A DNA stretch of 64,000 nucleotides from Tubulanus polymorphus (Eukaryota; Animalia; Nemertea): positions 11,534,088-11,598,087 of the forward strand of contig NC_134031.1 in assembly GCF_964204645.1 (NCBI RefSeq), in the 5' to 3' direction. Numbering within the stretch: position 1 is the stretch's first letter; every line of letters begins with the position of its first letter. The notes under the pieces are model-generated. The model saw only the letters and a program-made list of their open reading frames with translations. It made no database searches and was not told where the DNA came from. Below, one piece after another: positions 6,160-48,708 of the stretch. Made by a program: the position numbers and the translations under genes.

Positions 6160-6529
6160 TTCTGTATCTAGTACTTTTCTACAGCCTCCAAATAATAAAA
6201 TCAACGATACGTATTGTAATCGAAGGTTCGTTGCTACTTTCGTCTGCTTTTAAATAAAGGCTTATCGTTCATTCCATGGTTTCAATGACCACCTATCAAC
6301 GGTTCGCTCCAATAATGTATGCTATCATTCAAATCTGGATACCACACACCATTCATTCGTCTGCGTCTAAAATGCACTTATATACAAGTTACGGCTAGGC
6401 TACATGTTTAGGTAAGTTTTATTTCACATTACTTCTTTTCATAATATTATCAGATTTTTAGTCTGCTTCATAAGTTAATGATAACATATATCCTGTACTA
6501 TCAACAATTCCTCCTTTCATTCTTTTCAG

Positions 6530-8296
6530 ACGTATAGGGCCTACATTCTTCGACATACAGTTCATTAGACATCAAGAGCGTTATGCCTTTTTTACTACAC
6601 ATGCGAGAAATCATATCGTTTATAGATGCAGTCAATCATTTGCCCAAAGAAATTCCAAAGAGATACGATCTAATTTTGGAGTTTTTGAAATCCACTTAAC
6701 ATGATAGGCCTATCTATGAAAAGCAACTTCAACTTGAAATTGTTCTAGGAAATGGTTACACTAAAAAGAAATTTGATGCTTCTCCAGATCATTGCAAACA
6801 AACATATCATATATTGAGTAACCAATACAGCGATTTACTGAATAAATCAGATAATTTTCAAACTTTGCTTGAAATAAGTAAAAGCAGTTCCACTATAAGG
6901 AATGTCATTTTAATACTTTAAACCCGATCATGTAGGTTTTGCGGTAGTGACAAGTTAACTACAAACACGAAGTTAAGTTATCCTATAGTCTTCAGTAAAA
7001 ACGGTCCGTTGGGCAATAATACACCTACACAGGTGTATTATTTTTCAAATACTGTCTCAAGTGTAACGCAAAATACACTTATTCATTTAGTTACAAAGCT
7101 AATAGTCCTGAAAAGAAATATCCTACCGACTTAAGCCTACATAACGATTATTACGTGGTTACTACGCAAACTGTATTTACAACTGAAATTTTGAAATCTA
7201 TGTCAGCTAAGATGAAAATCTTTGGAGCATCTTTTGAGTCATTAGCCGAAGAATACAACGCAGAATTCATTGAAAGAATCGATGAACTGAACAGAGTATT
7301 CGAAGATGGTGGAAGAAATAATGGCAAATGGAATTTATGTGAATAGCGCATAGAAGATGCATGGTATTTATGGATCGCTTCAAAAAATTGAATTGCGTAA
7401 CAATTCAATACACGTCTGGAAATCGCATAGATATGGAATTGATAGCCGAGGACATTTTGGAGGTATTTTTTTTTCTATACGCCTATTTTCTTATTTAAAA
7501 TATTTACAAATCATTGAAACTTCTATACAATGTATCATTAGGCATGCCGAGGATCCGACAAGCGTTGGATCGAGCATAAGTGCAATATCCCAGGTTTTAA
7601 AGAAGGCTATTACACGGTAGACGGCAATGAAAAATTGAGAAGATCAATATGTGCCCATTCAGTACAAAAATCGGATAAACCAGGCTGCTTAAACGATTTT
7701 TGTCCCAATGACCCAGTGATTGGTGGTCATCATAAAGTTCCTAACAAGTTAGTTCTGTCATAAAAAAACATTCCATACACTTCGCCTGAAAAATCAATGC
7801 AAAAGCTTATCTATGTATACATTCTATAATGTTGTTTCAGAATTTCGATAAAATGTATATACTCAGAGAAAACTACCGCCATATATCATCATTTAGTTAC
7901 ATAATTTATTTATTAATTTGTCATTCTTGCAGATTTTGTACCTACCACGTACCACAACATAGCGAAAAGCTAATACAAAATCAACCAAACAGAATACAAC
8001 GCAAGCGGAAACTGCCTGAATATCTTAAAGGTAAAATACATCCTCGTATTAGCTATATTCTTAATTCTAGTAGCCTTCCGCGACTCAACGACCTTGATTT
8101 AAACTTGATCAATTCAAAACCTGTTTATCGACGCTTTTGGTTATATGAACTGATCAGCAATATACTTGAATAAAATAACCGGAATAACAAGAAATTTCCG
8201 ATGTTTACGGCTCGACAGTGCCTTTATAACGTGGATTTATCAAAATTGCCAAGCGAGCTGAAGGATATCATACGGATTGTATCGGCGACAGCGGTA
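6530..8296 (+). pseudogene. CxC5-type cysteine-cluster protein of KDZ (Kyakuja-Dileera-Zisupton)-like transposase, 5' part, disrupted
   Basis: Hand translation: CRFCGS...PIVFSKNGPLG..FKYCLKCNAKYTYSF...YYVVTTQTVFTTEILKSM...GASFESLAEEYN...LCE*RIEDAWYLW, later PGC...VIGGHHK (degenerate VxDGH); GT-AG introns and stops. Confidence 0.55.
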
Positions 8297-8449
8297 AGGT
8301 AAGAAAGCCTTTACACTTTTAGCAAAAACTAGGTGGAAAAGGGAAAAAAAATAATCACGCGAATTTCAATAGGGGTTTCTGTGAAGAAACAGAAAACCCT
8401 AATAAGTTTTTCCACAATTTGTTACACCAGAAATTAAACAAGTTGCTAT

Positions 8450-8662
8450 TTGACAATTTTTTTATGTGTTGTGTATGTTGGTTGTTCTAACATAAATTCA
8501 TTTATATCTTTATATTTTTTGTGGGATTATCTTATCTAATTTATCTTGTTTTACTTGACGCCAGATATTTTTGTTAGAAGAATAAGCAACCGAACTCTCA
8601 GGGTTGTAATATAAATTTCTTAAATATTGTTCTTTAGTATTAGGAGTTTTTTTACCACCCAT
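8450..8662 (-). pseudogene. Polinton-type integrase, N-terminal fragment
   Basis: MGGKKTPNTKEQYLRNLYYNPESSVAYSS...FMLEQPTYTTHKK matches the YYxP...QxxYTLHK N-terminal signature of Polinton integrases; truncated before the DDE core. Confidence 0.75.
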
Positions 8663-8692
8663 TTATATATCCTTAATTTTAACTTTATATTT

Positions 8693-9957
8693 CTAATATT
8701 GAATACTATCTAATTGTGAATTTACAATATTTAATTGTGCGTCACATATAATATAAATGTGCATTCTGAAATTTTTGTCTCCTGTTTTCTTTGCCATGAA
8801 TAATTGTATTCCATCTTTAGTGTTCTGTAGTTTTTTCCCAGAACCATGTAATGAATTATCCTCTGTTGTTCTAAAATCTAACCATAACGCGTATTTATTA
8901 CCGGTATAATAATCACTTTGATTAATATTACAATTTTCAGATGATTTTACTTTTTCATTCATAAAATGTTTTCTAATTTCTGGCCATTGATCAATCATTC
9001 TCATTCCTTGACAAAATATTTTATTTGCTATTCCTTCGATAGTTATTTCTACTTTTGTTATTTTAGGATTATAATAATTATCTACCTTTATTGCGCCATT
9101 AGAATATGTTGCAATGGTAAAAAATATTAATATACCTTTAATAGATCTTCTTGAGAAGTTAATATTCTCATTAATTATTTCATCATTTGCATTAATAGTT
9201 ACAGTTTTATATTTATCAATATAATCATATAATAATGAAAATCCTTGATTGTATTGAGTTTGAATTGTGTTAGCAATATTTTCATTAGTTACTGTGTTAT
9301 ATTCTAAACATATATTCGATAATTTATAACCCATATCTTTAACAACGCTAGATAATACAATTTCATTTACAGGAGCAAATTTTATCTCAAATATAATATC
9401 TTCTTGAATTACATATTTATATAAAGGTGCATTATTATTTATCAATTCAAAGTCTAATGGAATTTTATATTTGCTTCCATAAATCTTTTTAATCAAATTA
9501 TCTACGTCATTAGTTACTACTGCATTATTGGCCTCAGATCTTAATTTATTTTGATTTTCTGATTGGATGCCTTGAAATATCATATTATTTCTATTTTCTT
9601 TAGTTAACCATAAATCTTTATAATGCATAAATAAATTATAATCATCTAATGAGAAAACTGTTTCTGGACCAATCTTGATAGTTAATTTTTTAATCAAATA
9701 TCTTCCAAGATTATCAACAACATAATTATTATTATTACCAGTTACTTTTATATCAGCTGATAAATAAATACTATTTGGAACATAAAAAGTATTTTGTGTT
9801 AATCTCGGGATTCTAACATATAAAGTTTCATCAGGATTAAAGTTTCATCAGGATTAATATTAGAAGGGTTATGAGTGATTATATGATGTGATCTTTCTGC
9901 TTTAATAGCATTAGATATTTTACGATTCTTAGAAGGATTGATATAACGCCCACTCAT
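8693..9957 (-). pseudogene. Putative major capsid protein (double jelly-roll), frameshifted
   Basis: 334-aa ORF plus upstream frame MSGRYINPSKNRK...HNPSNINPDETLYVRIP; joined (about 415 aa) if the 17-bp tandem duplication at 9821-9854 is removed. Size, beta-rich pattern and context fit an MCP; fold not verified. Confidence 0.65.
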
Positions 9958-10012
9958 TTATTTAACAAAAAAATTCATCATTAATTTTTTATCATGTTAA
10001 GTTGATATTTTT

Positions 10013-11442
10013 TTATATCATGTTTACTAACCCAAAAATAATTGCACTTACAACTGTAATTAAAAATATAATAATATGTTCAGCAGCAAAGTTAATAATG
10101 TTTCCTGCAGATTTCAATATAAAACCAACAATTGATGCAATAATTCCTGGTAAAGCTGCGGCAGATTTTTTAGATAGTTCCCATAAATAGTTTGCTAATT
10201 TTTTTAAACCATCTTTGACTTTATCTTGTATAGAATTATTATCATTCGGGGGATTATCCGGTTTATTGGGAGTAGGAGTAGATTTCAAAGAATTTGATAT
10301 TGCTAAACCAATTGTTGTAAATAACATAGTTACAGCTGTTAGAATTGAAAGAATTGTGATTCCTTCTAATTTAAATAATAATTTTATTCTATCTTTCAAT
10401 TATATTTCAGAATTATGTTTTATCAACAAATCTTTAAAAATAATTTTTAATCTATTAATATTATAATCATATGATTTTAATAATGATTTAATTTCTTCTT
10501 TTTGTAATTCTAAATTATCTTTTAAATTATTAATTTCTTTTTCTAAACGTAATTCTTTTTGCCTATATTCCATTTCATCAATTACTTGACGATCAAGATC
10601 AGACTTTAATTGTTCTATTTCTTTATTTTTATCAGTTAATTCTCTTTCTAAAGTTCTAATTTTAATATCTCTTATACTTTTATTATGCGCAATTTATCAG
10701 CTTCATTTCTTATACTAATAATTTCTCTAATTGCTTCATCAGAAAATATATTTAAATCTTCTAATTGTTGATCTGTTGCATCAATTAATCCATTCGGTAA
10801 AAGTTTTTCAATTGGAACTTTATTTGATTTAAGTTTACTAGTTTTGGAAGTTATATTCTGTTCAGAAGTTGTTTCTGTTTCTGATTTCTTTTTGATTATT
10901 TCAAATAATTCATTAATTCTTTGTTTAAATACGTCTATATCATTATCAGTTAATTCTTGTATTATAACATCAGTTATTATATTACTATTATTAATTCTTT
11001 TAATTCTATCTGGATCTAAATCACTCAAAGTTGATTTTGTTAATATTTTATTTTTATTGTTTTTATAAGTGATATCAATATAATAATCACCTTTCAAATG
11101 ATAATACCATTTACCATTATCTAAAAATTTTAATTGATCTGCTAAAGGTCCAACGTCTTCATCATTTATGTTAAGTTTAGAATTTTCAATTATACGTTCT
11201 AATTTAGGTATTTTTTTTAAGTTATCTAAATCTTGTTTTACTAAATCTGGGTCTAAATTTTCAGGATTTAATTGTGATTCTGCGTTTTTAATATAATCAG
11301 GTATATTTAAATTATTATTATGTCCTGGCTCATTACCGTCATTAAAACTTGTTTCACTAAAATCAGGTTGTTGTTCATCAGTTATGCCAGGTTCATCAAA
11401 ATTATCCATTCCAATATCTATTCCACCTCCTTCTACATCCAT
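10013..11442 (-). pseudogene. Viral coiled-coil protein with C-terminal hydrophobic/amphipathic helices, split by frameshifts
   Basis: ORFs 10672-11442 and 10013-10399 joined by coiled-coil-like sequence; GITILSILTAVTMLFTTIGLAI and AAALPGIIASIVGFIL segments; TAAATG start. Confidence 0.6.
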
Positions 11443-11459
11443 TTATATAATAAAGAAAT

Positions 11460-12784
11460 TAAAATTAAAAATATAATATTCCTCCTATAACAATTCCTAT
11501 ACAAGTTAAAGCTAATTTAGTATTTTCATGGAATTTATTATCATTATCAGTTTTAATTATTTCATGTTGAATATTATCAGTTTTAATATTTTCTGATGTA
11601 TTATAATCCGGTTTAGAATCATTATTTAATTCAATATTCTTAGTTTTAGTTTCTGTTGATTGAATGTGTTTTTTTAATTTTTTTCACCTTCCATTAATTT
11701 TGGAGCAGTAATAATCTTTTTATTCATATCATTTAATCCAAATGAATTATTTATTGTTGCAGTATTAATTAGATTATTGTAACCAATTATATTTCCCATC
11801 TTTAATACTAAATCATTAGAAATAATTAATAGATTAGGGCTTATACAATAATTTAGTCTTACATGAGATTTATCTAAATAATTTTGATATCTTACAATGT
11901 TTTCTGGAATCGATCTATTTTTATCATTATGAATTGAATCTTCAAATAATACTTTGAATTGTTTCTGCGCATCGAATGAAGTGTTATCATTTCCAATTAT
12001 TGTGGATCTTGTTTCAACTTGCGCACCTAAAATACATATCAAATAAGGTTCTAATAGATTGATTTATTCTTTGTATACCAGCTTTAGTAAAACCTTCACT
12101 ATTTTCTAAAATGAAATAAACCCAACCATTATTATTTTGTTGTTGTATATAATTATAATATTTTGGTAATTCATTCCAATTTAGTGTTCTTATATCAGAA
12201 TTTGTTATTATTTTTCCAAATTCTTTAGTACATAATATTCCTAATCCATCCATTGTACCAATTTTTGCTCTAAAATCTTTATTTGAATTAATATTAAATT
12301 CATTACATATTTTATAAAACTTAGAAAAATTAATATTATTATTCAATTCTTTAAAATATTTTGAACCTGGTAAAGGACATTCTAATTAATCTAATATTAA
12401 TTTTATTTGAAAATAAGTATGAAATCTAAAGAGTGATAACCTCAATGGTAAACTTGGTTTGTTTAAATGATCATTCCAACTAATTCCACATCCTGTTGTT
12501 GCGCAATAAACAGCAAAATTTAATTGGTTCTGCCAATACTTCATATTAGATTTTAATAACCATTGTTTTGCCTCATTTCAATTTTCAAAATTAATTGTAT
12601 ACACATGAAATATATTTTCCATCTTTACGTGAAAATGATTACTTTCAGTAACATAAATATATAAATTAATTAATGAATTTAAAACTTAATTTCTATATGA
12701 AATATCTTTATTAAAATCTATTGCTGGAATATTATATTTAATTGATTTATTATATTGGAAAGCTTTTGGAAAACTATCTACCAT
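11460..12784 (-). pseudogene. Conserved viral protein with C-terminal membrane anchor, disrupted
   Basis: MVDSFPKAF start, WQNQLNFAVYCATTGCG, GFTKAGIQRINQSIRT, ILGAQVETRS, terminal KLALTCIGIVIG; homologue at 53594-54983. Confidence 0.7.
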
Positions 12785-12800
12785 TTATATAATTTAAAAA

Positions 12801-13235
12801 CTAATAATTTATTAATTCTTTTAATAATTTATCTTGTTCTTCAACTGTTATATGACCATTTAAACTTATTATATAATCTAGTGTATTCTTTAATTTATTA
12901 ATTTCTTTTATATTAGTTTTAATTTTTTCTTTATTACTTTTTATATTTAATTTTGAACTTATACCAGTTAAAACACTTGAACTTAATCCTAGTACGCCAA
13001 TTGATATAGCTAAAGGTGTTAATGGACTGAATATTGCTAGAAATGTTATTACAGAACTAATTGTAACCGAACCACTAATAATAAAATAATATATAATTTT
13101 AGATTTTAAATATTTTTTCTTTTTAACTTTTAAATCATTTTCAAATTCTAATATTTGTTTTTCTAAATATGTTTTTAATTTAGTTTTATTTATATAATGA
13201 GGAATGATATCAATATTATCAACTTTATCTTCCAT
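12801..13235 (-). CDS. Viral two-TM membrane protein
   Basis: Intact 144-aa ORF, hydrophobic hairpin IIYYFIISGSVTISSVITFLAIFSPLTPLAISIGVLGLSS; TAAATG start; homologue at 53263-53576. Confidence 0.75.
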   Translation of the reverse strand: MEDKVDNIDIIPHYINKTKLKTYLEKQILEFENDLKVKKKKYLKSKIIYYFIISGSVTISSVITFLAIFSPLTPLAISIGVLGLSSSVLTGISSKLNIKSNKEKIKTNIKEINKLKNTLDYIISLNGHITVEEQDKLLKELINY

Positions 13236-13313
13236 TTATTTAGAAAAAAAATTACTAATTAGTAAACTTATAAGCAACAAATATAACAATAACAGTTCCA
13301 CCTAAAATCCATA

Positions 13314-13676
13314 TTATTTCATATTTCTGGTTTCTTTACTCGGGGTATAATAATCTGATAATTTAGGTTTGTATAGATGTAATTTTTCTTTAGTGGTTAC
13401 CGCGTTATATAAACTCATTGCATCATCAACTGATTGAAAATCTCTATGTGAAATCTTCTGATCATATAATTCCTTGTTAATATAATCCATATAGTTTTGC
13501 CTCTTTTCTCTGTATTCTTCTGCTGCTTTATTGTATTTTTCTAATGCTAAGTTATGTCTTTTTTGTTCTGTTAATGATCCATTTTCATCAATATGCTTAA
13601 ATAAATAACCACCACCAGTAAATGCTGAAGCGTTAACAATTGCAGATCCTATAATAGTTATAATTGCAGAAGCCAT
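13314..13676 (-). CDS. Viral small protein with N-terminal hydrophobic helix and coiled coil
   Basis: MASAIITIIGSAIVNASAFTGGGYLF...EQKRHNLALEK; TAAATG start; a hydrophobic tail in another frame (to about 13255) suggests a late frameshift. Confidence 0.75.
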   Translation of the reverse strand: MASAIITIIGSAIVNASAFTGGGYLFKHIDENGSLTEQKRHNLALEKYNKAAEEYREKRQNYMDYINKELYDQKISHRDFQSVDDAMSLYNAVTTKEKLHLYKPKLSDYYTPSKETRNMK

Positions 13677-13700
13677 TTATTTAGTCAAATAATTACGTAT

Positions 13701-13922
13701 TTATATGGGAGGAATATATTTTTGTTTTTCTAAATAATCAATTGTTAAATTAGATAAAGTAACTGCTAATGTTAATTTCAAGATATCATTTATATCAAAT
13801 CTATCAACATTAACACTTCCCATTTTAAATACGTTTTTTAATACCATTGAATAACCAACAGTTCCAACTGATAGTAAGGCTCCATTATATAAACCAGTTA
13901 TTATCCACTTATTATCACTCAT
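13701..13922 (-). CDS. Viral small hydrophobic protein
   Basis: 73-aa ORF, TAAATG start, two hydrophobic segments. Confidence 0.7.
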   Translation of the reverse strand: MSDNKWIITGLYNGALLSVGTVGYSMVLKNVFKMGSVNVDRFDINDILKLTLAVTLSNLTIDYLEKQKYIPPI

Positions 13923-13925
13923 TTA

Positions 13926-14279
13926 TTAATTAAAAAAATTACTATCTTCAAAATATTTAGTTAACTTATTTATGATTAAATCAACATTTATTTCATTACT
14001 AGTTTCATTTGTATATATTTCAATTATTATTTTTTTAATATCATCGATGATAAAATCTTCATCTAATTCATAAAATCTTAAAGATTCTCTAATTAAATTA
14101 GTAATCTTTTCTACATCTAGAGTTTCTTTATCTATTGTTGTTTCATACTCAAATGTTGTTTCATTAGAAAATGCAATATTTTTGATTTCTGTAATTACAT
14201 CATTAATGTTAAATTTCATTTCTTTCTCACGTTTAAAATCAAATCCAAAACATATACTCGGTCCAACAGTTATATTCAT
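13926..14279 (-). CDS. Viral hypothetical acidic protein
   Basis: 117-aa ORF, TAAATG start, packed between neighbours. Confidence 0.65.
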   Translation of the reverse strand: MNITVGPSICFGFDFKREKEMKFNINDVITEIKNIAFSNETTFEYETTIDKETLDVEKITNLIRESLRFYELDEDFIIDDIKKIIIEIYTNETSNEINVDLIINKLTKYFEDSNFFN

Positions 14280-14295
14280 TTATATAATGAAAAAA

Positions 14296-15117
14296 TTAAT
14301 CTCTACATCTTATAACTAATTCATAAATTACAGGGAAATTATTTAAATCAATTAAGTATCCATTGTGATTTCTTACTTCTAATTTGAAATTATTGAAATG
14401 TGGTATACAAGGTTTAAAATCACATTCAGCTAAATTATAATTTATTTGCCTTCCAAATTGTTTAACATTCTTCAATGGTAAAATATTTAATATACTAGAA
14501 TTACAAATTGTATCTTTATTTGCTTCAAATGTTTTTGTAGGATCAATTAAATTGCAATAAATATAAAAATGTGTAAAAGGTATTAAATTTGATATACCGT
14601 ATATGTTTCCTACAATAATTTTAACTGGATGAATTCCTAACAGTTTAGCAAAAGGTTTTTTTACCAAGTAAGCATGTTTTCTTGAAGGTAAAATAGTACC
14701 AATAAGATTTTCATCATCAAACTTTATTTTAATTTTATTAGAGCTCTCACTTTTTATGAATTTAATATTAAATTTAGAATCACTACCTAATATAATCCGA
14801 GCTTTTCTATTAATTTCTTGCTCTAATGTTTCTAAATTATAAAATCCTGGTGTAAGCATAAGATGAATCCAGTCATGTATAATTTTATCATAATTAAAAA
14901 AGGTTCTATGTTCATTAGTTTTATCTGATACATTATAAAAAGAGTAACATAAACTTATATTAACTAATTTTAAATCAAAACAATTCTTAAATTCTCTATC
15001 TAATTGTATTAGTAAATTATGTGATTTATAATTTGTAAGTTTTCTAGAATCAACAAATATTCTGTATTCTTTTAATTCTACCATTATTTGTAACATAAAA
15101 AAATTACCGCTCATCAC
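14296..15117 (-). CDS. Putative minor capsid protein (penton, single jelly-roll)
   Basis: IFVDSR N-terminus, PGFYN, AKLLGI, FYIYCNLID and C-terminal FKLEVRNHNGYLIDLNNFPVIYELVI, a pattern typical of Polinton/virophage pentons; likely true start at 15084. Confidence 0.7.
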   Translation of the reverse strand: MMSGNFFMLQIMVELKEYRIFVDSRKLTNYKSHNLLIQLDREFKNCFDLKLVNISLCYSFYNVSDKTNEHRTFFNYDKIIHDWIHLMLTPGFYNLETLEQEINRKARIILGSDSKFNIKFIKSESSNKIKIKFDDENLIGTILPSRKHAYLVKKPFAKLLGIHPVKIIVGNIYGISNLIPFTHFYIYCNLIDPTKTFEANKDTICNSSILNILPLKNVKQFGRQINYNLAECDFKPCIPHFNNFKLEVRNHNGYLIDLNNFPVIYELVIRCRD

Positions 15118-15153
15118 TAAAAATTAATTTTGATAAAAATTTTTCCTTAATAA

Positions 15154-16489
15154 ATGGATGAGAAGATACCATGCGAAATTTGTGGTGAACTTCTAAGAAA
15201 AAAGTAATATGGCTCGACATATGAAAAAACATGATGAAAATTATGAACCCCCTAAAATAAACTGCCCAAAATGTAATAAATTATTCTCAAGAAATTATGT
15301 TAAAAAATATTCAGAGAAGTGTAAAATTAATGGCGCAACGGCTAATGTTGATAGTAACGAAAGTAATTGTAATTCTGTTGAAGTTGAACCAGAAATTATT
15401 TGGAAAAGACCTTTCTTATTCTATGACAAGGATAATATAAAAGATCATATCTGCGAGCCTTGTCGAAAAAAATATAACCCTGAAAATATAGAAGATTGGG
15501 AGAATCATCAATTTCGTAAAGTACATATAGATAAAATTGCTAATAAATTTGAAGCAGAATTCAATGAAAGAAAAAATAGTTTATTAGAAAAAATAAAATA
15601 TGTGAAAACGTTACCAGATAATAAAGAAACAGTTGAAAAGTTAGAAAAACAATATAATGAATTAACAAGAAAAACATATTATTGTAAATATTGTAAATTG
15701 ATTATTACAACAAGTAATTCAAATCTACATAATAGAACAATAAAACATAAAGAAAACGTAAGAAAATACCAGGAGCTTAATGAAGATCTATTACCAATAA
15801 ATTATAAACAAAAATGACCACAATGTAATTATGCGACCTTAAGGCAAGAAGGTACTGTGTTATTTTGTAATGAATGTGGATGGCAAAAGAATTTATGGGG
15901 TGAAGAAAAAACTTTTTTGAGAGATTTTCTCATAGAACCAAAATTAAATTATCTAGATGAAATTTTTAAAATATTTTCTATAGAAGATCATACACCAGAA
16001 TATATGCAATGGCTTGAAAAAATGAAAATGATAGAAAATAAAAATGGTGAAATAACTAAAAAAGATATAATAAAAACAATTATTCCATCAACATTTAACA
16101 CAAAACAAAAGAAAATGTATTTATATTTATTATTTAATGATTATTATGAAAAACCTAAATTAACAGAAGAAGATATGGAAAATATAAAAAAAACATTCAA
16201 ACAAATATTAATGTATCATTTGGAAAATAGAATAACAGATTCAATTAATTATGAATTATTTTTAGATAAGATTGTAAATTATTTAAACATCGATATTATA
16301 ATTCTATTTGACGAATTAACAAACAAAAAGAAACAAAGAGAGCGATATGAAATGTGGTACAAGATAGAACTTTATTTAAATGAGAAAAATGAAATGGAAG
16401 AACCTAAACAAATTATACAAGAACAATTAAATGAAAATGAAGAAGCCAATAGTGATTTCGAGTATGATGATATTGATTTTATGTTTTAA
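15154..16489 (+). pseudogene. C2H2 zinc-finger / Zn-ribbon / VLTF3-like late transcription factor fusion
   Basis: ORFs 15209-15817 and 15857-16489 are in frame, split by one TGA that replaces the first Cys of CPQC...CNECG. C-terminus PKLTEE...FKQI...INYELFLDKI...LTNKKK...MWYKI follows the VLTF3 pattern; a 1-nt insertion near 15200 separates the TAAATG start. Confidence 0.6.
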
Positions 16490-19400
16490 TGGCCATAAGG
16501 TAATGTTTTTATACCATCATCAAAAATATGCCTTTTATCATCAAATGGATTCAAACTAGTTTTTTCAACTTCATTAATGTACATCTCGTGATTTTCTGAT
16601 CAATTCATTTTATGTTTCATTACAATTGAGTTATATTAACACTTTATATAATCTTGAAATTCTATATGTTTATCAACCACATGTTTTCTTATTCCTTTTA
16701 ACTTTTTAGCTTCATGATCTTTTGTTCTATAACTATACATTTTACTTCTTATCTCAACAAATTCAATCATTTCATCACCCCCTAATTCATCTTTAAATTT
16801 ACCAGGAATCTTTTTATTATCATTGCTAAATAGTTCATGATCTTTGGGATAATTGCTAAAATCAAAATGATGTTTTAATGTTTTTAAGTCTTTTGTTATG
16901 TCATTTGTCTTGATTTTTAGTATGTAACTGTCAGTATTTTTTGCAATTAATGGAAATCCACAGTTAAATGTACCATCTTCAGTTGATAAATCATAAACAT
17001 AATCTGATGGTTTATATATTTCAAATAAATCTTTAACTTCTTCTGTTAATTCTTTTTCTACATGCCTTAAATTAAAACAATTTGGTTTAGATTTAATTAA
17101 TTCTATATTCATATTAAATCCTAATGAACTGCATAATATATTTAATCCTGATATAGCAACTTTCCTTTCTGTGCGAAGGTTATCTTTTTATCCTTTGTAA
17201 ATTTTTTATTTTAGTGCCATCTGCGGCATAGAATCCAATGAAGAACCACTTTCTTAAATTATTTTTTGCATTTAATACATAATCTGGTACTATCTTTTCT
17301 TTTGTTGAAGTATTACTTTTCACTATTGCATGAATATAGAATTCATCATTATATTTTATAGCAAAATCTTTAGGATTATTTACAAGTATTCTATAAACTG
17401 CTGATGATTTCATAACATCTATGATTTTAAATATTTTATGAGAATAAACTTATTCACAGAATTTCTTAATTCTTTCTAATAATTTCAAATCTTGATTGCA
17501 TAAATACCAACAATATTTATTACCCCAAACATAATTATACACACCTGCTGAACCATCACCCATGAAAAATCCTTTGATAAAATATTCTTTTTCTTCTAAT
17601 GTTTCAGGTTCTATATTATAAATATTATCAATAATTTCATCAAATGATATATGATTCATTCTTTGGAAAAATCTTTTATGTAATAATTCATCTCCAATTT
17701 TTATATCAGTTGGTTTTATTTCATAGCCATTTCGTTTAATTAAACTATGATCTTCTGTAACATCTACAAACCCTAATTTAGTTCTAACTCTATAGATTTT
17801 CTTATTTGTTTTATGTCTAATAATATTCTTTAATTTTATCCATCCATTTCTTGTCCAAACATCCATTAATTCATTTATTTGTATTAATTCTTTTTCATCA
17901 TATGAAATATAACATTCATTTTGTTTTGGAATTATTTCTGAAATTCTTCTTATCAATATTTTATCATTACATTTTAATAATATTGGGGTGTCAGCTGTTA
18001 CAGAATCAAAATATAATATTTCAATATGCTTTTCCCCAAAAAGTGGTTGTAAAACATTATAATAAAAATCAAACATTGATAATTTTGATACTTCTAAAAC
18101 AGTTGAACCAATGAATATAGGTTTATTAAATTTCATTGACGTTCTTTTTAATTTAACTGCTGTTAAATAATCTTCAAATCTTTCCTAAATGTCTAGGACT
18201 TGATTGTAAATGTCTTAATCGTTCAGAATTATTTACTAATTCAATATCATTTCTATTTCTAATATTTTCGCATGTTTTACCATAAAAACTATTATTCATT
18301 AATTTGAAGAAATCTTTTTCAAAATCTGGTTTTGATATGGTTCTCTGTTGAGTATTGAAATCTATATATTTTTCTAACCACTTCGATTGATTAAATTCAA
18401 TATATCTATGTACTTTCTTTAATTTCATTCCTTGTTTTAGATAAAATTTATATTCTATAATAAACAATATAATTGTATTTATTATTTTGAGTAAGTATTA
18501 ATTTTTCTGTAAAAACATGATCTTTCGGTTTTATTTTCTTCTGGTATTCACTTAAATAACTATCATCTACAGTTAAATGTTCTGGGCATTAAGGTAAGTT
18601 TCTTGTTTTAAACTTTATATTTTCAGGATATTCTAAATCAACTACAAAGAAATAACCAATTGGTGCTTCATCTTCTAAACTCATAATTGCGCTTTCCCAA
18701 TTAGTTTTATCATCATTTTCAACTTCTGTTAATATAAAATTTCTATATGGTTGGGGTTGCATCATTGCCCAGCCATATAAATTATTGGCGTCAATATATA
18801 ATAATTTATATTCATCATTTGCTTTAAAATATCTATCTCCCATAACACCACTAATTCCACCTCTAATTGATTTTTCAAATAATAAAACCATATCTGGTTC
18901 TTTTAATAAATCTAATTCTACATTTGTATATTTTAAACCACATTGCCAGGTTAAACCAGGACTAGAGTAGCAATAACAACGATCAACATTAAAATGATTC
19001 AAATTAACTTCTCTAAATTTTTCAAATATGTCAGCCAATATCATAACATCTGATTTTAAATATAAATCAACTAATTCACCATGATTTTTCATCTTAAAAT
19101 GGTTCCAAATATTTAATGTTCTATTAAACACTTCATCTTTCACATACTCCTCTTTTAATTGATCATAAAATTGATCTTTTAATAATTCTGTTACATTAAA
19201 ATCATTGTGTGTTTTATAAAATGAATAAGGAATTGCGCCTTTATATCTCAATAATTTAAAATCTTGTTCATTGGATAATAATATCGAGTTATAACAAAAT
19301 CATTATCAACTAAACTTTTTGATAAATTATCTAATGAACTTGCTAGAAATCTATAAGAATCTAAAAATCTAATGCAACCAAATTGAAATGAAATATAATT

Positions 19401-21511
19401 TTCAGATGTTTTAGGTAATAGTTTAAAATCATATTTTCTTACATTTACGTCATTCATAGCATTATATTCTTCTATTTCTTGATTAATTGCGCCCAATTTT
19501 CCCGATAATTGTTTTGTAAATAGATGGGTATCATAGCCTGATAAATTATGAAATAATATTGGTACGAAATTAACTTTCTTAGCTTGTAAATTGCAATCTT
19601 CTTGAGCAGCTCCACGATATTTTGAATTTAAATGATCATGATCTCTAACTTTTTTATCAAATGAATAAAAACGTTTTTCACAATAACAACAATGAGTTGC
19701 ATAATTAAAATCAATTTCATCTTTTGTCATAACTATTCTTTTATTTTTTGTTTAATAATTTTGCAAAATCACTTTCTAATTCAATCATTTTGTCACAAAA
19801 ATCATTAACTACATTTTCACCTCTAAAAGAAATATATTAACTTTCATATAATTCGGGATAATTTGATTTGATGTAAATTCCATAAGCAGCAGCTCTTTGA
19901 TGAACTTAATTGTATTTATAATTGGTGGGTCTTGAATTATATCTTCATTTAGTTCATTTCCTTTATCCATTGATTTTAATAATTGCTGTTTGTTATATAT
20001 TTCTTTTCTCTCTTGATCAGTTGGAGTTACAAATGGAACAATATTTTTAAATTTATGATTAGTAAATTTCAATTTATAATCTTTTTCTGTTGGCATTATT
20101 AATTTACAAAAATCTTTATTATCACATAATTCTTTATGTTTCAGTAAAGCATTCTCACATCTAAATTTAGATAAATATTTTCTACATAGATAAATTTTAT
20201 TATGGTGATCACTTTCTGTTCTAATGAATAAATCAATTTGTTTTAACCACATATAATGTTCATTTTCATCTTTTTTGTAATATAACAAATCTATAGCATT
20301 TTCATCATCATAATATTCTGTTAAATATAAAGCTTCCAGTGTATAATCTTTAATATTTTCACCTTTTGTCTTTGGTAATTGCATTAATTCGAATACATTT
20401 ATTTTTAAATTATTAATTTTTTCTATTTTGGGTATCATTTTTATAGTTACTGGATATTGATCAATTTTATATAATGTTTCATATTTCCGGTATTTTGTTA
20501 TTCTAAAACTATGTGTTATATCTTCTGTTGGGTGTAAGCAACTAATAATTGACCGTAGAAAACATTTATTATCTTCATTTTGAATATTTATTACTGCTTT
20601 TGTTGTAAATGGTAATTTAATATAAGATGATGCTTTAATATCCTCCTTTTCTGTTGTAAAGTTTGAATCATTTTTAAACATTTTATTACTTTTTGATGTT
20701 TTATTTCTTTTTGTATTATAAACATTTAAATCTAAAAATATAATTTCATTCAATGTTAAGCCAGAACCCTCAAAATATCTTTCTTCAATATGACGTTTAA
20801 ATTCATTAAATATTTTTTCTAATTTCTCTTTTATTTGTGTTTTTGAAATTATTTCTTCAGAGAGTGTTTGAATATTATAATCCATTTTATCTTCTGACTT
20901 TAAAAAACTTACTTTCCCAGAGATACTAATTTTTGGATATTCAACATTGTTATCAAATCTAGTATTTTTTCTATTATTTCATTAAATTTACTATAATCTT
21001 CTATTGTTGTACCTTTAAAAAATCTAAATATAATAGCTGCAGGACCAATTTAACTACGTAATGTTTCTAATATTTCAATTGTATCTTTTATTTCTAGTGA
21101 ATCAATATAATTTCTAACATTTTCCATGTAAGGTTTATTTGAAATGGATTTAGTTTTGGAAGTTGGTTTTTTTACTTTTTGAGGTTTATCATCGAAATAA
21201 TCTTTTCCTAAAACATTATTACTCAAATTTTGATGGTGTTTTTGTGATTCGAGATGTCTATTATAATTCCTTTTTGTTATAAATTCATCACAAACTTCAC
21301 ATTTTATTTCATCCACATTCATATCATCTAATCGTTCTTTTCTTTCATTTGTATTATCTAGTGTTTCAAAATCTATTACATTTTTTATATGATTTGCAGT
21401 TTTTTCATGTCGTGATTTTTGGGATTTATCGATGTATTTTTTACAATATTGGCAATAATATTGATTTTTATTAACATTATTATTTTCTGGCTGGTGTTCA
21501 TTCTCCCCCAT
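16486..21511 (-). pseudogene. polB: Protein-primed family B DNA polymerase with intein, multiply disrupted
   Basis: FHNLSGYD and YLKSDV (exonuclease), YIDANNLYGWAM (A), KLMNNSFYGK (B), YFD/TDS (C), PGKFKDE, RSKMYS, C-terminal FDDKR...TLPYGH*; N-terminal Zn fingers, OTU-like NEDNKCF...HY and EndoVII-like VRDHDH. Confidence 0.95.
16936..18004 (-). mobile_element. Intein with LAGLIDADG homing endonuclease in PolB motif C (about 357 aa reconstructed)
   Basis: Block A SVTADTPILL, block B VDVTEDHSL, endonuclease blocks IKGFFMGDGS and FIGFYAADGT, blocks F/G YVYDLSTEDGTF...LIAKN, then TDS; removal restores YFDTDS. One stop and apparently two 1-nt frameshifts. Confidence 0.95.
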
Positions 21512-21595
21512 TTATTAGGAAAAAAAATTACTTGTGGTGATGAGTGGTGTCTCGACCTTCGACCTCTGGTATGAAACAACACATTTCCTATTACT

Positions 21596-21980
21596 GTTGT
21601 ATATGTTGGTTGTTCTAACATAAAATCATTTATATCTTTATATTTAACTACATTTTGTGGGATTATCTTATCTAATTTATCTTGTTTTACTTGACGCTAT
21701 ATATTTTTGGTAGAAGAATAAGCAACCGAACTCTCAGGGTTATAATATAAATTTCTTAAATATTGTTCTTTAGCATTTCTAGTTTTTTATCCCCCATTTA
21801 TATATCGTTAATTTTAACTTTATATTTTTAATATTGAACACTATGTAATTGATAATTTATGATATTTAATTGCGCATCAGATATAAGATAAATGTGCATT
21901 TTGAAATTTAAACTTTCTTTTTCCTTTTTCATGAATAATTGTATTCCATCTTTTGTATTTTGTAGTTTTTCCCCAGAACC
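21596..21980 (-). mobile_element. Virus copy B fragment: MCP C-terminus plus integrase N-terminus
   Basis: Diverged direct duplicate of 8468-8846. Confidence 0.85.
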
Positions 21981-22059
21981 AATATATTAAAAAATTTCTT
22001 TAACTGTTTTTGGATCTAATACAATAAATTTATTATTTCTATCATAATAGAAATATTAC

Positions 22060-22485
22060 TAGAAATAATAAATTTATTGTATTAGATCCTGAAACAGTTA
22101 AAGAAAATTTAGATAATTGTATAAAAATAGCAATTGATATTTATAAAGGATCAAATACATTATTTGTAATAGAAGATTGTGCACATTTACATGATTCAAA
22201 AATTAGAAAGAGTGAAGTATGTTATTTAGCTTTCTCTGGAAGACATTTGGGATAACGTGGGTTTTAAATCAAAAATATAATTCAATTGTTAAAGATTTTA
22301 GAGAAAACATTTGATTTTTAGTATTATTCTACAAGAAAGATAGAAAATCGATGAAAAATGCGCTTGAGGAAAATGATATTATTCCACATGATTTACATAA
22401 TGAATATATGGATAAATTGAAAAATAACAAAAGATCAAAATTACTATTTCGATTACAACACCCATTTGAATATGAATTCATTTAA
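22060..22485 (+). pseudogene. A32-like (FtsK/HerA) DNA packaging ATPase, C-terminal half
   Basis: Hand translation: TLFVIEDCA (Walker B), LAFSGRHLGI, WVLNQKY, DFRENI; Walker A half missing; frameshift and stop. Confidence 0.8.
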
Positions 22486-22688
22486 ACTCAACTAGCTGGT
22501 TAATCTAGTATATTTTAGTCACATTCTAGTCAAATCTTAGTTATTCGTAGTTGAAACAAAAATCAAATAAATTTCAACAAGAAATAAATAAAAACAATAA
22601 TATTTCGACTAGCATGTTAATCTAGTATATTTTTAGTTACATTCTAGTTAAATTCTAGTTGCAACAACACAATTTTTTTGTTTTATAA

Positions 22689-23238
22689 ATGGGAGGTGAA
22701 AAGAAAGGAAAATCTAAAAATAGTGATGTTCCAATTGAAAAAACTTTGGATGATTAATATAGGTATAACAGAAACAAAATTAACACCAGATAATAATGGT
22801 GCTTTAAATGATATTACTACAAACAATAATTATGAATATTATCTTTATTGTAAACATCAATTAGAAATATTTATAGCATCTGGGAAATGTAAAAGTTTTA
22901 TTAGCAAAAATTTAACTTATAATGAATAAGATGCAATGAAATCAGATGAAATTATTAAATTATTTAAGATTTATGAAACTGCGAGAATAGCTAGAATTAA
23001 TGATGCGATATCAGAAAATGTATTAAAAGGTTATAGTAAATTATGTAAATACATGCTACCAATTCAAGATGAAAATAGATTATATTCCGATTTAGAAAAT
23101 GATTATTTAGTTATGACTGAATTTAATGAATGGATTGGATATTCATCATTTCAATTAGGTGGATTTATGACATTATCAACTGGAGTTATGACATTTTCAA
23201 ATATTGAAAGTAAAATTTTTTCTATAATAAATGAGTGA
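22689..23238 (+). pseudogene. Viral hypothetical protein, disrupted
   Basis: TAAATG start at 22689; ORFs 22678-22929 and 22936-23238 are in frame across one stop. Confidence 0.55.
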
Positions 23239-23599
23239 AGTGGAAGAGGTGAAAGGATTAACTGTAAAGAAAAAACCGAGATCACAGAAACATATTGAAT
23301 GGTCTCGGCAATTAGGAATTAAATCGAGAGAATTTAAAAAAGCTATAAAAGAAAAAATAAATAATGAAAATGTTAATAATAATGGTGAAAATATTTTTAT
23401 TTCTACTCCTTCTGATAATAGAATATATGATAAATATTTATATTTTACAACTGGATTTGTAATTGTATTCATTTTGATTGGGTGTAGTTGGTATAAAAAA
23501 TCAAATAATATTTATGTTATTAATAATTCTGAAACAACTACTATCAAAAATGAAAATACTTCTGAAATTCCAAAATCCACAATAAAAGAAATGGATTAA
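23231..23599 (+). CDS. Viral single-TM protein
   Basis: 122-aa ORF, TAAATG start, TM segment YLYFTTGFVIVFILIGCSWY. Confidence 0.7.
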   Translation: MSEVEEVKGLTVKKKPRSQKHIEWSRQLGIKSREFKKAIKEKINNENVNNNGENIFISTPSDNRIYDKYLYFTTGFVIVFILIGCSWYKKSNNIYVINNSETTTIKNENTSEIPKSTIKEMD

Positions 23600-23747
23600 T
23601 ATTTTAGAAAAACAGCAAAAAAATAATTTCATTGATTCTAATTGAATATCTCACTACTTTTGTCTGTCTATGCGGAGCAATTAAATTGTCCAGATAAGTC
23701 ATTTCGGATTCTCAATATTTAATCAATTTTATTATCAATTTATTTTT

Positions 23748-24073
23748 TTAACCAACAACTTCTAAATCATGATGCCCGTCTTCATTTTTCCCATGGTAAA
23801 TTATTTTAAATCCTTTAAATCTTTTAATTCCTCTGTACTCAATGAAACCTATTTATCAGGTAAAAATACTTTAAATTCCCGCGTTGTACTAACATTACAG
23901 TAAGTTAAATTTGCTGATACTTTCTCTCCATGTTTAGTTTTTATCTTTTCTAATTTTGATATTTTGTGTTCAATTTCATTTGTAACATCGACTAACTTTT
24001 TTATTTCAAATTGTTTTTTTGCTGGTTTTATTCTGTTATTTACTGTTGCTAAGAATGCTTTTCTATTTCCCAT
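23748..24073 (-). pseudogene. Small viral protein, possibly OB-fold ssDNA-binding, next to a terminus ending about 24160
   Basis: TAAATG start; TKHGEKVSANL...FKVFLPDK, continues past one stop; upstream 24070-24160 resembles 21508-21595. Confidence 0.4.
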
Positions 24074-24163
24074 TTATTATGGGAAAAAATTACTTGTGGT
24101 GATGAGTGGTGTGTCGTTCTCTCGTTCTCTGATCTGAACCCAAAATTTCCTAATTACTACGCT

Positions 24164-24482
24164 TGTGAATGACGATTTGATGAATGGGTAACTCTGGATA
24201 GGATTACAGTCCTCTCTCTCGCATTATCGCTCGCTGTGTGCTCAGAGTTTGTGAGCTGAACCTGTTTGTATTGTATTTTGCATTTCTAAACTCTATGAAC
24301 TTGTACAGTCTTTATTCTGAATCTCTCTTCTAGCACTATTTCTGTGCACCCCGCTATCCCCTCCGATTTGTATCTAAACCATGTACTTGTAAATACATTT
24401 ATTCCGAATAAAACCACGGTAAAAGGCAGATAGTCGTTGTCTTCATATTCTGGGACCTATTGTTGGCCGTCTTTACCCAACA
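24164..24482 (+). repeat. 5' LTR (319 bp)
   Basis: TGTGAATGACGATTTGATGAATGGGTAA repeated at 31240; contains AATAAA; ends in CA before the PBS. Confidence 0.9.
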
Positions 24483-24485
24483 TTT

Positions 24486-24503
24486 TGGTCCCTCGAGCCG
24501 GAT
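24486..24503 (+). promoter_or_regulatory. Primer-binding site, tRNA-Tyr type
   Basis: TGGTCCCTCGAGCCGGAT, one mismatch from the complement of the tRNA-Tyr 3' end. Confidence 0.75.
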
Positions 24504-24521
24504 GCTAGATGACGGACAACG

Positions 24522-27500
24522 ATGTCTGATGATAACGCGAAACAGATACAGCCGTCTTCGAGCCTGTCGTCAAAGTTAGAGCACCTACGTCGAGCTTGCG
24601 GGCTAAAAAAGGAGCTCTGACTCGTCTTTGTACTCAGGCTACAACATTGATCGCTGCCCGTGGAAGCCGGAGTCAATTGAAAAAACTGCTTTCGGCAGTT
24701 AGTACAGCATATAACGACGTCGTTTTTACCGTGAATGACGAATATACAAGTTTACTGCACACAGATGCCGAAACTCAAGAAGCAGCTGCCTATGTCACTG
24801 AGGTAGAGAAAAGGCACAGTGACACGTCGAACGCGATATTAGGCTACTTGCAGTGTCGAATTAATGATTCTGCGTCTCAAGCGTCATCTGCATCATCGAC
24901 TGCATCTCTAGCCGCAGAGGTCAACGCCAAGGTCAAGCTACTGAAGGTCACGCAACTGCAAAGACGCTTAGAAATTGAACATAGGAAAGAAGCAGCGTTG
25001 AAACACCAACGGATCCTACAGGAAGCGTAAGACGAAGCCGATGTTGCGGTCCTGAAAGCAAAGTTGATGAGCGAAGCTGACGAACTCGAGCGAGAACGAA
25101 AACACGATTTTGATGATGAATTGGTTCCTGACCTGCAAGAGTTTACACAGCCTCAACCGACACTCCCAGATCCGCCAGTGAATCGGCAGCCTCCACCACT
25201 GCTGCCAGACGACTATTGATACCGATTACCACAACCTCAGTCACCAAGACGTCCGCCGAGATCTTCGTTTACGAAGTCGCTACCGAAAATTAAGTTACCG
25301 ATTTTTAATGGTGATGCTGCAGAATGGCCACGATGGGAATCACTCTTTGAAGCATTGGTCCATAGTCAACCGGACCTGAATAACGTTGAGAAGATGACAC
25401 ACTTGCAGTCAGCAGTCACTGGTCCGCCTCAACAGTTGATTTCCGGTATGATGTTTGATGGAAGCCAGTATGATGATGCTTTGAATTCATTAAGAAATCG
25501 TTATGGAAAGGAAGACGACATCGTACGTGCTTGCCTAAAAAAGGTGTTTAGTCATCCGTCACCTAGAATACATGACGTCTCGTCACTCGAAGATTTCCAA
25601 GGTGTGGTAAATTCTACAGTCGTCACGCTGAAGAGCCTAAATTTCATGGAAGATTTTCGCAGCTCAGAGAATCTGCATCGAGTTATAATGAAGCTGCCCT
25701 TAGAGATCAGACGTGAATGGGGAAAACAAGCCGTAGAAATCGAATCCAAGAAGGAACGACCGACTTTACTCCACTTGAATGAATGGTTGGTGTTGCAACT
25801 CCGAGTATCCTTAAACTACTGTGAAGCAACGAAGTCTGTAGATGATCGTCAATCCAGAGATAGCAAGCAACATAGCAAGCCGAGTACATCCAAACCGAGA
25901 TCTGTCTTCTCTACTAACGTCAAGGCTGATGATGAGTGTATCCGCTGTAAAAGTAAACATCCCCTAGCAGAGTGTGACGATTTCAAGAAAAACCTTCCAG
26001 ACGTTAGAGCGCAGCTGGTTGCAGATAATGGACATTGTTTCTCATACCTCTCCAGGGGACACAGATCGCACCACTGCTTGTCAAAGAAATCATGTGGCAT
26101 AGACAACTGTCAGATGTAGCATCACAAGTTACTACATGGAAGCAAGAGAATATACCCTAAGACCACAGTTAAAGCGAAGACTACAGATTATTCGTCACAA
26201 GAGCGCACCGTCACCTTAACTAGAAGACCTACGGCCAATGATGAAGTGTTGTTGCAGGTGGTACCGATTCGAGTGTATGGTAATGGTGAACGATTCTTCG
26301 ATACTTTCGCTATATTAGATCCAGGGTCCCAAACGTCGCTGTGCTGTCGGGAGATAACAGATCGATTAGATGTTTCTGGCGAAGAAAGGACGCTGACGCT
26401 CAATACGATTAATGGTCCAAGTTCGCCGAAAACTGGAATGCTTGTTCAACTCGATGTCGTCCCGCTCTCAGCTAGTTCCGTTCGAAAGAAGATCAAGGTC
26501 GACGAAGCATGGTCCGTGGATGGATTGAAGATTCCACTCAGCCTTACCCGATTGAAATCCAGATTGAATTGGTGTCACGTAGAAGATATAGACATATCTG
26601 TTCCTGGTCATGGTGATGTTCAAGTCCTGTTAGGTGCTAACGTCATTGAAGCGGTTATTCAACATGAAACTAGGATTGGTAGACCTAACCAGCCCATAGC
26701 CGTTCGGACAGATTTTGGTTGGTCACCGACCGGGAGAGCTGGTAATTTCTCTTCATTGGAAGATACGATTCCACGTGTCTACTTTTCCTGGGATGCCACA
26801 CACGAAAATCAACAACTGTCTTCATTGGTTAAAGATTGGTGGCAAACTGAGTCGTTTGGTGTCAAGAACCTGGTACGTGAAAGTCAATCTACCGAAGATG
26901 TCCGAGCAGTTCAGATGTTAGAAGCTAATACTCGATTGGTCAATGGTCACTACGAGACTGGTTTGCTCTGGAAAGATGATGATATTCAACTGCCATGCAA
27001 CCGTTTAAGTGCGATGAAGCGTCTGAAGAATACAGAATGTACCTTAAAGAAGGATCCTGTCAGGGCTGCCGCCTATGCCAAAACGTTCGACGATTACGTT
27101 GAGAAAGGATATTCTCGAAAACTGAGTGAGACTGAAGCTAATCAGCCGAGTCCGAAGAAATGGTACCTTCCACACCATGCCGTTTTTAATCCAAACAAGA
27201 AGAAGATACGAGTGGTCTTTGACGCTGCCGCCTGCTACTCAGGAGTATCACTCAACAACCAGCTGATTTCAGGCCCCAATCTACTTCAAAGCCTGCCTGG
27301 GGTTCTTCTGCGTTTCGGTCAAGAACAAGTAGCTGTGATTGCTGACGTAGAAGCTATGTATCATCAAGTGCGGATAGCAGAAATGGATCAACCAGCATTA
27401 CGTTACTTCTGGAGGAATCTAGAAGACCGTCCACCAGACATCTACCAGATGCTGGTCAACATTTTCGCCGCCCGATGTTCCGCGTCTATCGCTAATTATG

Positions 27501-46561: not shown

Positions 46562-46875
46562 GGCCAAATAAAAAAAATTAGTTGTTTATCGTCCTTTTTT
46601 CAAAAAGCTTGGGTCGGCCGGGAGGTTTTTTTTTAAATTTTTTATTTTAGATCGAGTGTTGTAAATATACGATCGATAAAATAAAGCATGTTTTCCATCG
46701 ACTGGAAGTGTGGCGCCACAAGCAATACAAATACAATTCAATGAAACGGTAGCTATGGCAAATATTTTCGATTGGAACCAAAATAGAACACAATAAAAAA
46801 AAAAGAAGATTGGGTCGGGTATTTTTCGTAGGGTCGGGCGGGGACGATAAACAACTAATTTTTTTTTATTTGGCC
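46562..46875. mobile_element. MITE, Zator-type (314 bp)
   Basis: TIR GGCCAAATAAAAAAAATTAGTTGTTTATCGTCC; TTA TSD on both sides. Confidence 0.9.
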
Positions 46876-48640: not shown

Positions 48641-48708
48641 ATATTGAATAATCTATTAATTTATATGTTATTCATATATATTTTATTCATGTATATAAAT
48701 ATTTTAAG

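Follow-up and report, generated by a model that had tools for sequence, protein, structure and literature searches.

A start-codon motif resembling the poxvirus late promoter in an apparent polinton-like provirus of the nemertean Tubulanus polymorphus

Virophages reuse the late promoter of their giant-virus helper, as Sputnik does with mimivirus and mavirus with Cafeteria roenbergensis virus (CroV), and among protists such reliance on giant viruses is established. Here we analyze a 64,000-nucleotide stretch of the genome of the nemertean Tubulanus polymorphus (assembly GCF_964204645.1, contig NC_134031.1, positions 11,534,088 to 11,598,087 of the forward strand; hereafter the window, in the numbering of which all positions are given). 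It contains an AT-rich block that is, judging by the modeled structure of its capsid protein, a decayed endogenous polinton-like virus (PLV), rearranged and pseudogenized, because the capsid model matches only double-jelly-roll capsids at the top of the list. Nearly every gene of this provirus begins within one and the same short motif. For animals, the sole published lead that we found is the physical association of PLVs with the occlusion bodies of entomopoxviruses (PMC11296320). These poxvirus-associated PLVs, described in 2023–24, include AHEV_PLV1/2, CBEV_PLV1 and Ca_PLV1, elements of approximately 12–14 kb, some with PolB, that were found in poxvirus occlusion bodies; one entomopoxvirus-associated PLV is integrated in an animal genome, no detectable integrase is reported for the PolB-bearing ones, and these viruses are proposed to be hyperparasites of poxviruses (PMC11296320).

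In one account, the late promoter of vaccinia virus has a T-containing core separated by a 5–7 bp spacer from a TAAAT that marks the transcription start and has G or A as its next base, and the transcripts lack a templated leader (PMC5294985). According to another, the late consensus is TAAAT, after which there is typically a G that overlaps the start codon; the 10th nucleotide before TAAAT is a conserved T between weaker ones, and intermediate promoters contain TAAA with an upstream preference for A, whereas late promoters prefer T (PMC11980589). Late genes of an entomopoxvirus (PMC3061580) and of salmon gill poxvirus (PMC4542343) are likewise marked by TAAATG.

In the Tubulanus provirus, a 22-base element, TAATTTTTT-N6-ATAAATGG, spans the start codons of almost all genes. 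A preceding sequence-only reading of this DNA had listed 17 start codons within TAAATG, most of them shortly downstream of a T-run at a spacing of 5 to 8 bases. All 17 ATGs are indeed preceded by TAA on the strands implied, and both T-runs quoted as examples (at 15154 and 24073) are present; the loose spacing, in contrast, gives way to a fixed register. Positions −4 to +3 read ATAAATG in 17 of 17 sites, with T at −3 throughout (starts 8662, 9957, 11442, 12784, 13235, 13676, 13922, 14279, 15154, 21511, 21797, 22689, 23231, 24073, 47291, 53594 and 54999). Upstream of it, positions −10 to −5 are variable and carry little information, a block of Ts spans −16 to −11 with T at −14 and at −13 in 16 of the 17 sites each, and As occupy −18 and −17 in 15 and 16 sites, respectively. 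The base at +4 is G in 13 sites and A in the remaining 4. That the TAA is generally not the stop codon of the preceding gene, as had also been claimed, was borne out: a real upstream ORF (open reading frame) ends there in 0 of 17 cases, the longest open run before the TAA being 21 codons, and the upstream stop codon was accordingly rejected as an identity of the signal.

Within the AT-rich block, sites on the minus strand lie at 9954–9975 (major capsid protein gene, 8693–9957, with a frameshift near 9830), 11439–11460 (with an interrupted T-run; gene 11442–10013, broken and with a membrane-span-like C-terminus), 12781–12802 (gene 12784–11465, broken by in-frame stops and a frameshift), 13232–13253 (gene 13235–12801, 144 amino acids), 13673–13694 (with the weak T-run TAATTATTTG; gene 13676–13314, 120 amino acids), 13919–13940 (gene 13922–13701, 73 amino acids), 14276–14297 (gene 14279–13926, 117 amino acids), 21508–21529 (zf-U1 gene 21511–21050) and 24070–24091 (gene 24073–23849). 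Those on the plus strand are found at 15136–15157 (zinc-finger gene 15154–16489, broken), 22671–22692 (gene 22689–23238, broken) and 23213–23234 (gene 23231–23599, 122 amino acids). Further along the window, the motif recurs at 47288–47309 on the minus strand (gene 47291–47082) and, on the plus strand, at 53576–53597 and 54981–55002, where it precedes copies of genes 12784 and 11442, respectively. Both integrase fragments carry an A-tract variant on the minus strand, at 8659–8680 (GTTAAAATTAA-N-TATAAATGG; fragment 8510–8662) and at 21794–21815 (second fragment, start 21797), GTTAAAATTAA replacing the T-run upstream just as the sequence-only reading had it. The near match that it saw at the penton gene is likewise there (15081–15102, minus strand): at the start 15084, placed by alignment to the intact metagenomic relative L001, the T-run is kept but is combined with AAATAATGG. 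The polymerase start at 20885 has an inexact form of the motif, a T-run with TAAAATG. An identical stretch of 23 bases occurs in the same orientation at 21527–21549 and 24089–24111, just upstream of the motifs of the two end genes; it has no inverted copy and may be part of the element terminus.

The motif is strongly concentrated at gene starts. ATAAATG was found at 17 of 19 curated gene starts and at 8 of 419 internal ATGs of the coding strand, and TAAATG at 17 of the 19 and 21 of the 419 (Fisher p ~3e-18), the 19 starts having been curated after the motif had been seen; the enrichment over internal ATGs on which the earlier interpretation depended is thus present. When ORFs were taken uncurated from both strands of the window, TAAATG supplied the first ATG of 12 out of 35 ORFs of at least 50 amino acids, compared with 46 of 628 ATGs overall. 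A T-run of at least five Ts followed within 4–12 bases by ATAAATG occurs 13 times in the 64 kb, each time at a listed start (13/13), and the 10 occurrences between 8341 and 24175 compare with a mean of 0.73 and a maximum of 4 in 500 second-order Markov simulations.

Comparison with the published descriptions revealed all four sequence features of the poxvirus late promoter that lend themselves to such a test. TAAAT overlaps the start codon, both at the gene starts of the window and in the ORFs of L001; the next base, belonging to the ATG, is G at all 17 sites; the 10th base before TAAAT (−13, because the T of TAAAT sits at −3), which is the best-conserved upstream position, is T in 16 of the 17, with further Ts beside it; and the variable spacer of approximately 6 bases (−10 to −5) fits the published 5–7 bp. 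At the level of sequence, the proposed resemblance to the poxvirus late promoter therefore appears sound. The suggested echo of the distinction between A-tract (intermediate) and T-tract (late) promoters also agrees with the published account (PMC11980589), and A-run variants recur at the same genes in the relatives of the provirus.

The capsid protein, of approximately 415 amino acids, has 271 homologues, none of them informatively named and none bearing the names AHEV_PLV, CBEV_PLV or Ca_PLV1; no capsid relatives were found among the viral contigs of IMG/VR. We examined 80 metagenome loci carrying capsid relatives. In the capsid tree, the window sequence falls inside a well-supported clade of 14 rows (clade A), in 13 of which the capsid gene starts with TAAATG, the 14th having a closely similar form. 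TAAATG is also seen in two more small clades and is missing from 20 other rows, implying at least three changes of state. Across clade A, not counting L003, a near-copy of L002, TAAATG is present at 47 of 65 ORFs of at least 70 amino acids versus 124 of 1996 ATGs, and in the intact L001 (11.5 kb, 20% GC) at 13 of 15 ORFs of at least 80 amino acids versus 37 of 404 ATGs. The motif is not a by-product of AT-richness, because it is kept in relatives with 36–44% GC: L006, L008 and L010 have TAAATG at 3 of 5, 2 of 4 and 2 of 3 ORFs, respectively, whereas among all ATGs of these loci it accounts for only 4 of 179, 6 of 121 and 7 of 83. In orthologous genes, the remaining upstream sequence has diverged around a preserved T block and TAAATG, as exemplified by a group of 75-amino-acid genes in which ...GGGTTTTCTACTAAATAAATG at 40% GC corresponds to ...GTAATTTTTTTTCTAAATAAATG at 20% GC. 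The upstream positions conserved everywhere are −13 and −12, with T at −13 in 8 of 9 and at −12 in 8 of 9 sites of the 36–44% GC relatives, and in 28 of 38 and 36 of 38 sites, respectively, of the low-GC relatives. An A-run takes the place of the T-run in 12 of the 47 clade A sites, and in L001, L002 and L004 these variants recur at the same genes, those for the ATPase and the penton. In a separate capsid clade without TAAATG (L021, L024, L028, L029, L025, L072, L073 and L079), CATTTAAAG is conserved approximately 30 bases before the capsid ATG and may be a promoter of another type, perhaps one serving another helper.

The gene set of the provirus is virophage-like, with a double-jelly-roll capsid, a packaging ATPase and a putative penton. 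A model of the capsid family (mean predicted local distance difference test score 70.7) was compared with PDB using Foldseek, and the top matches, with E values of 1e-8 to 1e-11, are all double-jelly-roll capsids, including those of EhV-201, PBCV-1, an iridovirus, faustovirus and mavirus, along with vaccinia D13. The N-terminus of the capsid protein, MASGKY..P, is conserved from the first residue, and the ATG within the motif is therefore the true start codon. The gene that we call penton (15084–14296, minus strand) owes this name to its position, its size and its homology to the gene in the penton position of L001 (565–1329), to which it is 43% identical with aligned starts. The A32-type packaging ATPase is represented by a fragment lacking its start (22043–22482, plus strand), which is 69–77% identical to L001:8470–9084, itself a match to Pfam Pox_A32. 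A protein-primed family B DNA polymerase is encoded at 16636–20885 on the minus strand in several broken pieces, three of which match Pfam DNA_pol_B_2 (best piece, E 1.2e-11). Within this gene, at approximately 17450–18184 (minus strand), there is a match to Intein_splicing (E 9e-5, below the Pfam curated cut-off) with a homing-endonuclease-like part, and the piece gave one weak match to PDB sequences (E 0.003), a DNA polymerase; an intein at this position is likely. Of the integrase, the window holds only the two N-terminal fragments, each of approximately 50 amino acids; full-length homologues with rve and Chromo domains are found in L002 (4460–5548) and L004 (3902–4981) and a split one in L001 (7588–8469), and their C-terminal chromodomain suggests chromatin-targeted integration. 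Apart from the two zinc-finger genes, the element contains several small genes without a family match. Pfam yielded no match to the adenovirus-type cysteine protease among the ORFs of the window and L001, several of which belong to no family at all. No terminal inverted repeats were found in the window and no long inverted ends in L001, a result of little weight given that the copies are rearranged. L001 additionally carries, under the motif, a deoxynucleoside kinase gene (10340–10981, minus strand; Pfam dNK, E 2e-31) that has no counterpart in the window copies; its homologues include no named close relatives and hence give no hint at host or helper. Capsid homologues with approximately 54% identity are also recorded under several Bartonella isolates as partial hypothetical proteins (P0036 and P0124–P0131, on contigs of 0.5–1.6 kb), and these look like contaminating eukaryote-virus DNA in the respective assemblies.

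The GC content of the window falls to 22–27% from approximately 8.1–8.4 kb to approximately 24.15 kb, between flanks of 33–47% GC. Genes of this block lie nearly all on the minus strand, and many are broken by in-frame stops and frameshifts. Alternative genetic codes were considered and rejected: stop reassignment either adds little or opens every frame, whereas the standard code gives a dense one-strand map, and because a change of code leaves the breaks unrepaired, the short ORFs reflect decay. The block is colinear with L001, yet it is rearranged into two parts. The first, element A (8100–21600, minus strand, 23% GC), is the decayed PLV provirus proper, delimited by GC profile, gene content, colinearity with L001 and read depth; its left edge is approximate (8062–8474), read depth climbing in the bin 7802–8452. 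The second, fragment B (21600–24175), is a rearranged partial copy recognized by direct repeats with element A (D9 and D11, 85–89% identity) and by tblastn with L001 proteins; it holds an N-terminal fragment of the integrase, a C-terminal fragment of the major capsid protein, the ATPase fragment and three small genes, and to its right read depth drops beyond approximately 24.1 kb. Fragment C (53255–55867, plus strand), identified by inverted repeats (I1–I12, 82–92% identity to element A) and tblastn, carries genes 13235, 12784 and 11442 in an inverted, incomplete copy. One more AT-rich fragment (46586–48700, minus strand) looks related by its motif-bearing gene at 47291 alone. Adjoining this gene, an AT-rich unit of 92 bases is repeated in tandem in five to six copies (48018–48685), which may be the end region of another provirus copy. 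Raw DNA reads of the same species (run X6) were mapped over positions 6500–26000, giving a depth per strand of 70–400 over the element versus 1–11 over the flanks; 30,988 of the 50,913 mapped reads are only 90–95% alike to the window copy, which has many private differences against which nearly all reads agree. The excess depth and the 90–95% read identity therefore indicate a family of tens to hundreds of diverged copies.

On balance, we consider it probable that the motif is a late-type core promoter with an initiator, and that a poxvirus-like helper virus, not the host, supplies the RNA polymerase that reads it. Eukaryotic scanning favors a purine at −3, and host scanning is disfavored here because the T found at −3 in all 17 sites is the opposite. 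Use by a helper is further favored over use by the host because one signal precedes nearly all genes, structural and replicative alike; because no Pfam match to RNA polymerase subunits, nor to VLTF families, was obtained among the ORFs of the window element or L001; because no TATA box can coincide with the start codon of its own gene; and because PLVs occur in entomopoxvirus occlusion bodies (PMC11296320). By analogy with vaccinia, late transcription factors would bind the T-rich core, the key T of which lies 10 bases ahead of TAAAT, and the helper polymerase would initiate within the AAA of that sequence and slip there, so that the mRNA gains a 5′ poly(A) leader absent from the template. Such slippage at the initiator has been described (PMC12722222), and because it adds this leader, an mRNA without a templated leader and with T at −3 would still be translatable. 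The A-tract variants, found here at the integrase and in relatives at the ATPase and penton genes, would constitute an earlier, intermediate-like class. The element would then have a virophage-like life cycle, staying silent while integrated and being expressed upon infection by the helper. The fuller proposition, namely that this is a provirophage present in tens to hundreds of copies with all its genes under poxvirus-type late promoters, some of them intermediate-like, is tentative, and we would call it possible rather than probable.

Several considerations weigh against a poxvirus-like helper. None was identified, and no poxvirus-like gene was seen in the 64-kb window; a scan of viral contigs with AATTTTTT-N5-8-ATAAATGG was uninformative in this respect, the matches listed, at least 80, all being single and on different contigs. 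A cytoplasmic polymerase would need an extra step to act on a nuclear provirus, and the many ORFs without a family match may hide a transcription protein. Furthermore, other clades of the same capsid family lack any TAAATG, and of the clades that have it, the more distant ones show a faint T-run or none. The helper could instead be another large DNA virus, iridovirus-like or of a new nucleocytoplasmic lineage, that happens to share TAAAT; the kind of mechanism would then stay as proposed and its attribution to poxviruses would fail. Several giant-virus families have AT-rich core-plus-initiator promoters in common, at least three separate capsid clades contain TAAATG, and for ranaviruses a TAAAT motif is reported in the promoters of DNA polymerase genes (PMC5294985). 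We nevertheless consider such a helper unlikely, given that in the literature compared, as far as its available text goes, the fusion of TAAAT to the ATG, the G at +4, the 6-base spacer and the T at the 10th base are jointly described for poxviruses only, and that the late motifs of asfarvirus, mimivirus, CroV (TCTA) and chlorovirus differ (PMC5294985).

The DNA polymerase of the element itself, the chromodomain integrase of its relatives and its tens to hundreds of chromosomal copies also fit an autonomous, germline-invading Maverick, and the conserved core holds either TATAAA (8 of 17 sites) or AATAAA (9 of 17), both of which are signals of the host RNA polymerase II system. These observations, too, count against helper dependence, and they are what speaks for the motif being a nuclear promoter of the element's own, read by host RNA polymerase II to yield very short leaders, its likeness to the poxvirus signal being due to convergence or shared ancestry. 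This we regard as quite unlikely: with a TATA box at the ATG, transcription would begin approximately 25–30 bases into the ORF, whereas conservation of the capsid extends to its very first residue; a zero-length leader with T at −3 would suit scanning ribosomes poorly; and one short motif before every gene is the pattern of virophages. Overlap with AATAAA, the TTTTTNT contained in the T-runs and the tight packing of genes on one strand could also be explained by an RNA-processing or termination signal of the upstream gene (a poly(A) signal, a T5NT-type terminator or a splice acceptor) that abuts the next start, an interpretation rendered highly improbable by the 8 of 17 sites without AATAAA, by the invariance of the T and G of the ATG as part of the motif, and by the presence of the motif at 15154, 21511 and 24073, the first genes of divergent pairs or at the element end, where there is no upstream gene. 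Among specific candidates of this kind, a poly(A) signal at every site was rejected on the same counts, and a splice acceptor was rejected as well, AG being absent between −10 and −1 in all cases (0 of 17). The baculovirus-type late motif TAAG is absent here and was dismissed as the identity of the start signal. As for chance or mere translation context in very AT-rich DNA, TAAATG does make up 7% of ATGs (46 of 628) at 24% GC anyway, but the Fisher test, the excess of 10 occurrences over 0.73 in simulations and the conservation at 36–44% GC refute it and leave it with next to no probability.

Other features of the window surround these proviral copies. In the flank adjoining the provirus, positions 25394–30596 encode DUF1759, a Pao-type peptidase A17 and an integrase zinc-binding (H2C2) domain and constitute a BEL/Pao long terminal repeat retrotransposon; BEL/Pao retrotransposons are known only from animals, which by itself would make a metazoan host most likely. 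Positions 1480–2700 are occupied by long, degenerate arrays of GGGTTAGGGTTTAG-type (TTAGGG/TTTAGGG-like) repeats with a 15-base period, which suggests a subtelomeric or interstitial telomere-like region. Between two provirus fragments, at 50546–52887 on the minus strand, lie ORFs of 317, 214 and 112 amino acids with 35% GC; the two pieces tested gave no Pfam match at E 0.01, and these ORFs may belong to a host transposon.

Our literature search of full texts turned up no paper tying TAAAT(G) to polintons or virophages, as far as the texts accessible to it extend. The words "promoter" and "TAAAT" are absent from the main text of PMC11296320 and of its preprint, "promoter" is absent from the coral polintovirus paper and from the 2026 PLV framework preprint, and the Egovirus preprint contains no promoter information. 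The match to the late consensus would be the first sequence-level link of such elements to poxvirus transcription machinery. If the fuller proposition of a many-copy provirophage is correct, a poxvirus-like virus that has so far escaped discovery would infect this lineage of animals, with a whole family of PLVs as its parasites. Their integrated copies could then provide an antiviral defense that infection induces, as mavirus does in Cafeteria. In that case, the helper could be sought directly by means of the 22-base motif, and initiators of the TAAAT type would extend far outside the Poxviridae known today.

Compared with the late promoter of poxviruses (vaccinia, mpox, entomopoxviruses and salmon gill poxvirus), the motif described here differs in its setting, a PLV provirus of 13–16 kb with a double-jelly-roll capsid instead of a poxvirus genome, and in the near-invariant A before TAAAT and the AA at −18/−17, which do not figure in the published descriptions that we compared. 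With Maverick/Polinton elements, the family shares pPolB, a double-jelly-roll capsid, a putative penton, an A32-type ATPase and many germline copies, as well as, in relatives of the window element, an rve-type integrase, whereas it differs from them in the lack of detected terminal inverted repeats and of a Pfam protease, in a capsid of approximately 415 amino acids from a family without named members, and in a GC content that is extremely low relative to the host flank. The entomopoxvirus-associated PLVs, compared by description only, differ in that the relatives of the window element carry an rve–chromodomain integrase. The likeness to virophages lies in a small, capsid-encoding, integrating element with one short motif before nearly all genes and no RNA polymerase gene found, and the difference in a motif of the poxvirus and not of the mimivirus-family type and in a host that is an animal and not a protist. 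What appears to be new here is the combination of a different polinton-like family, an animal host and a whole gene set bearing the poxvirus late signature.

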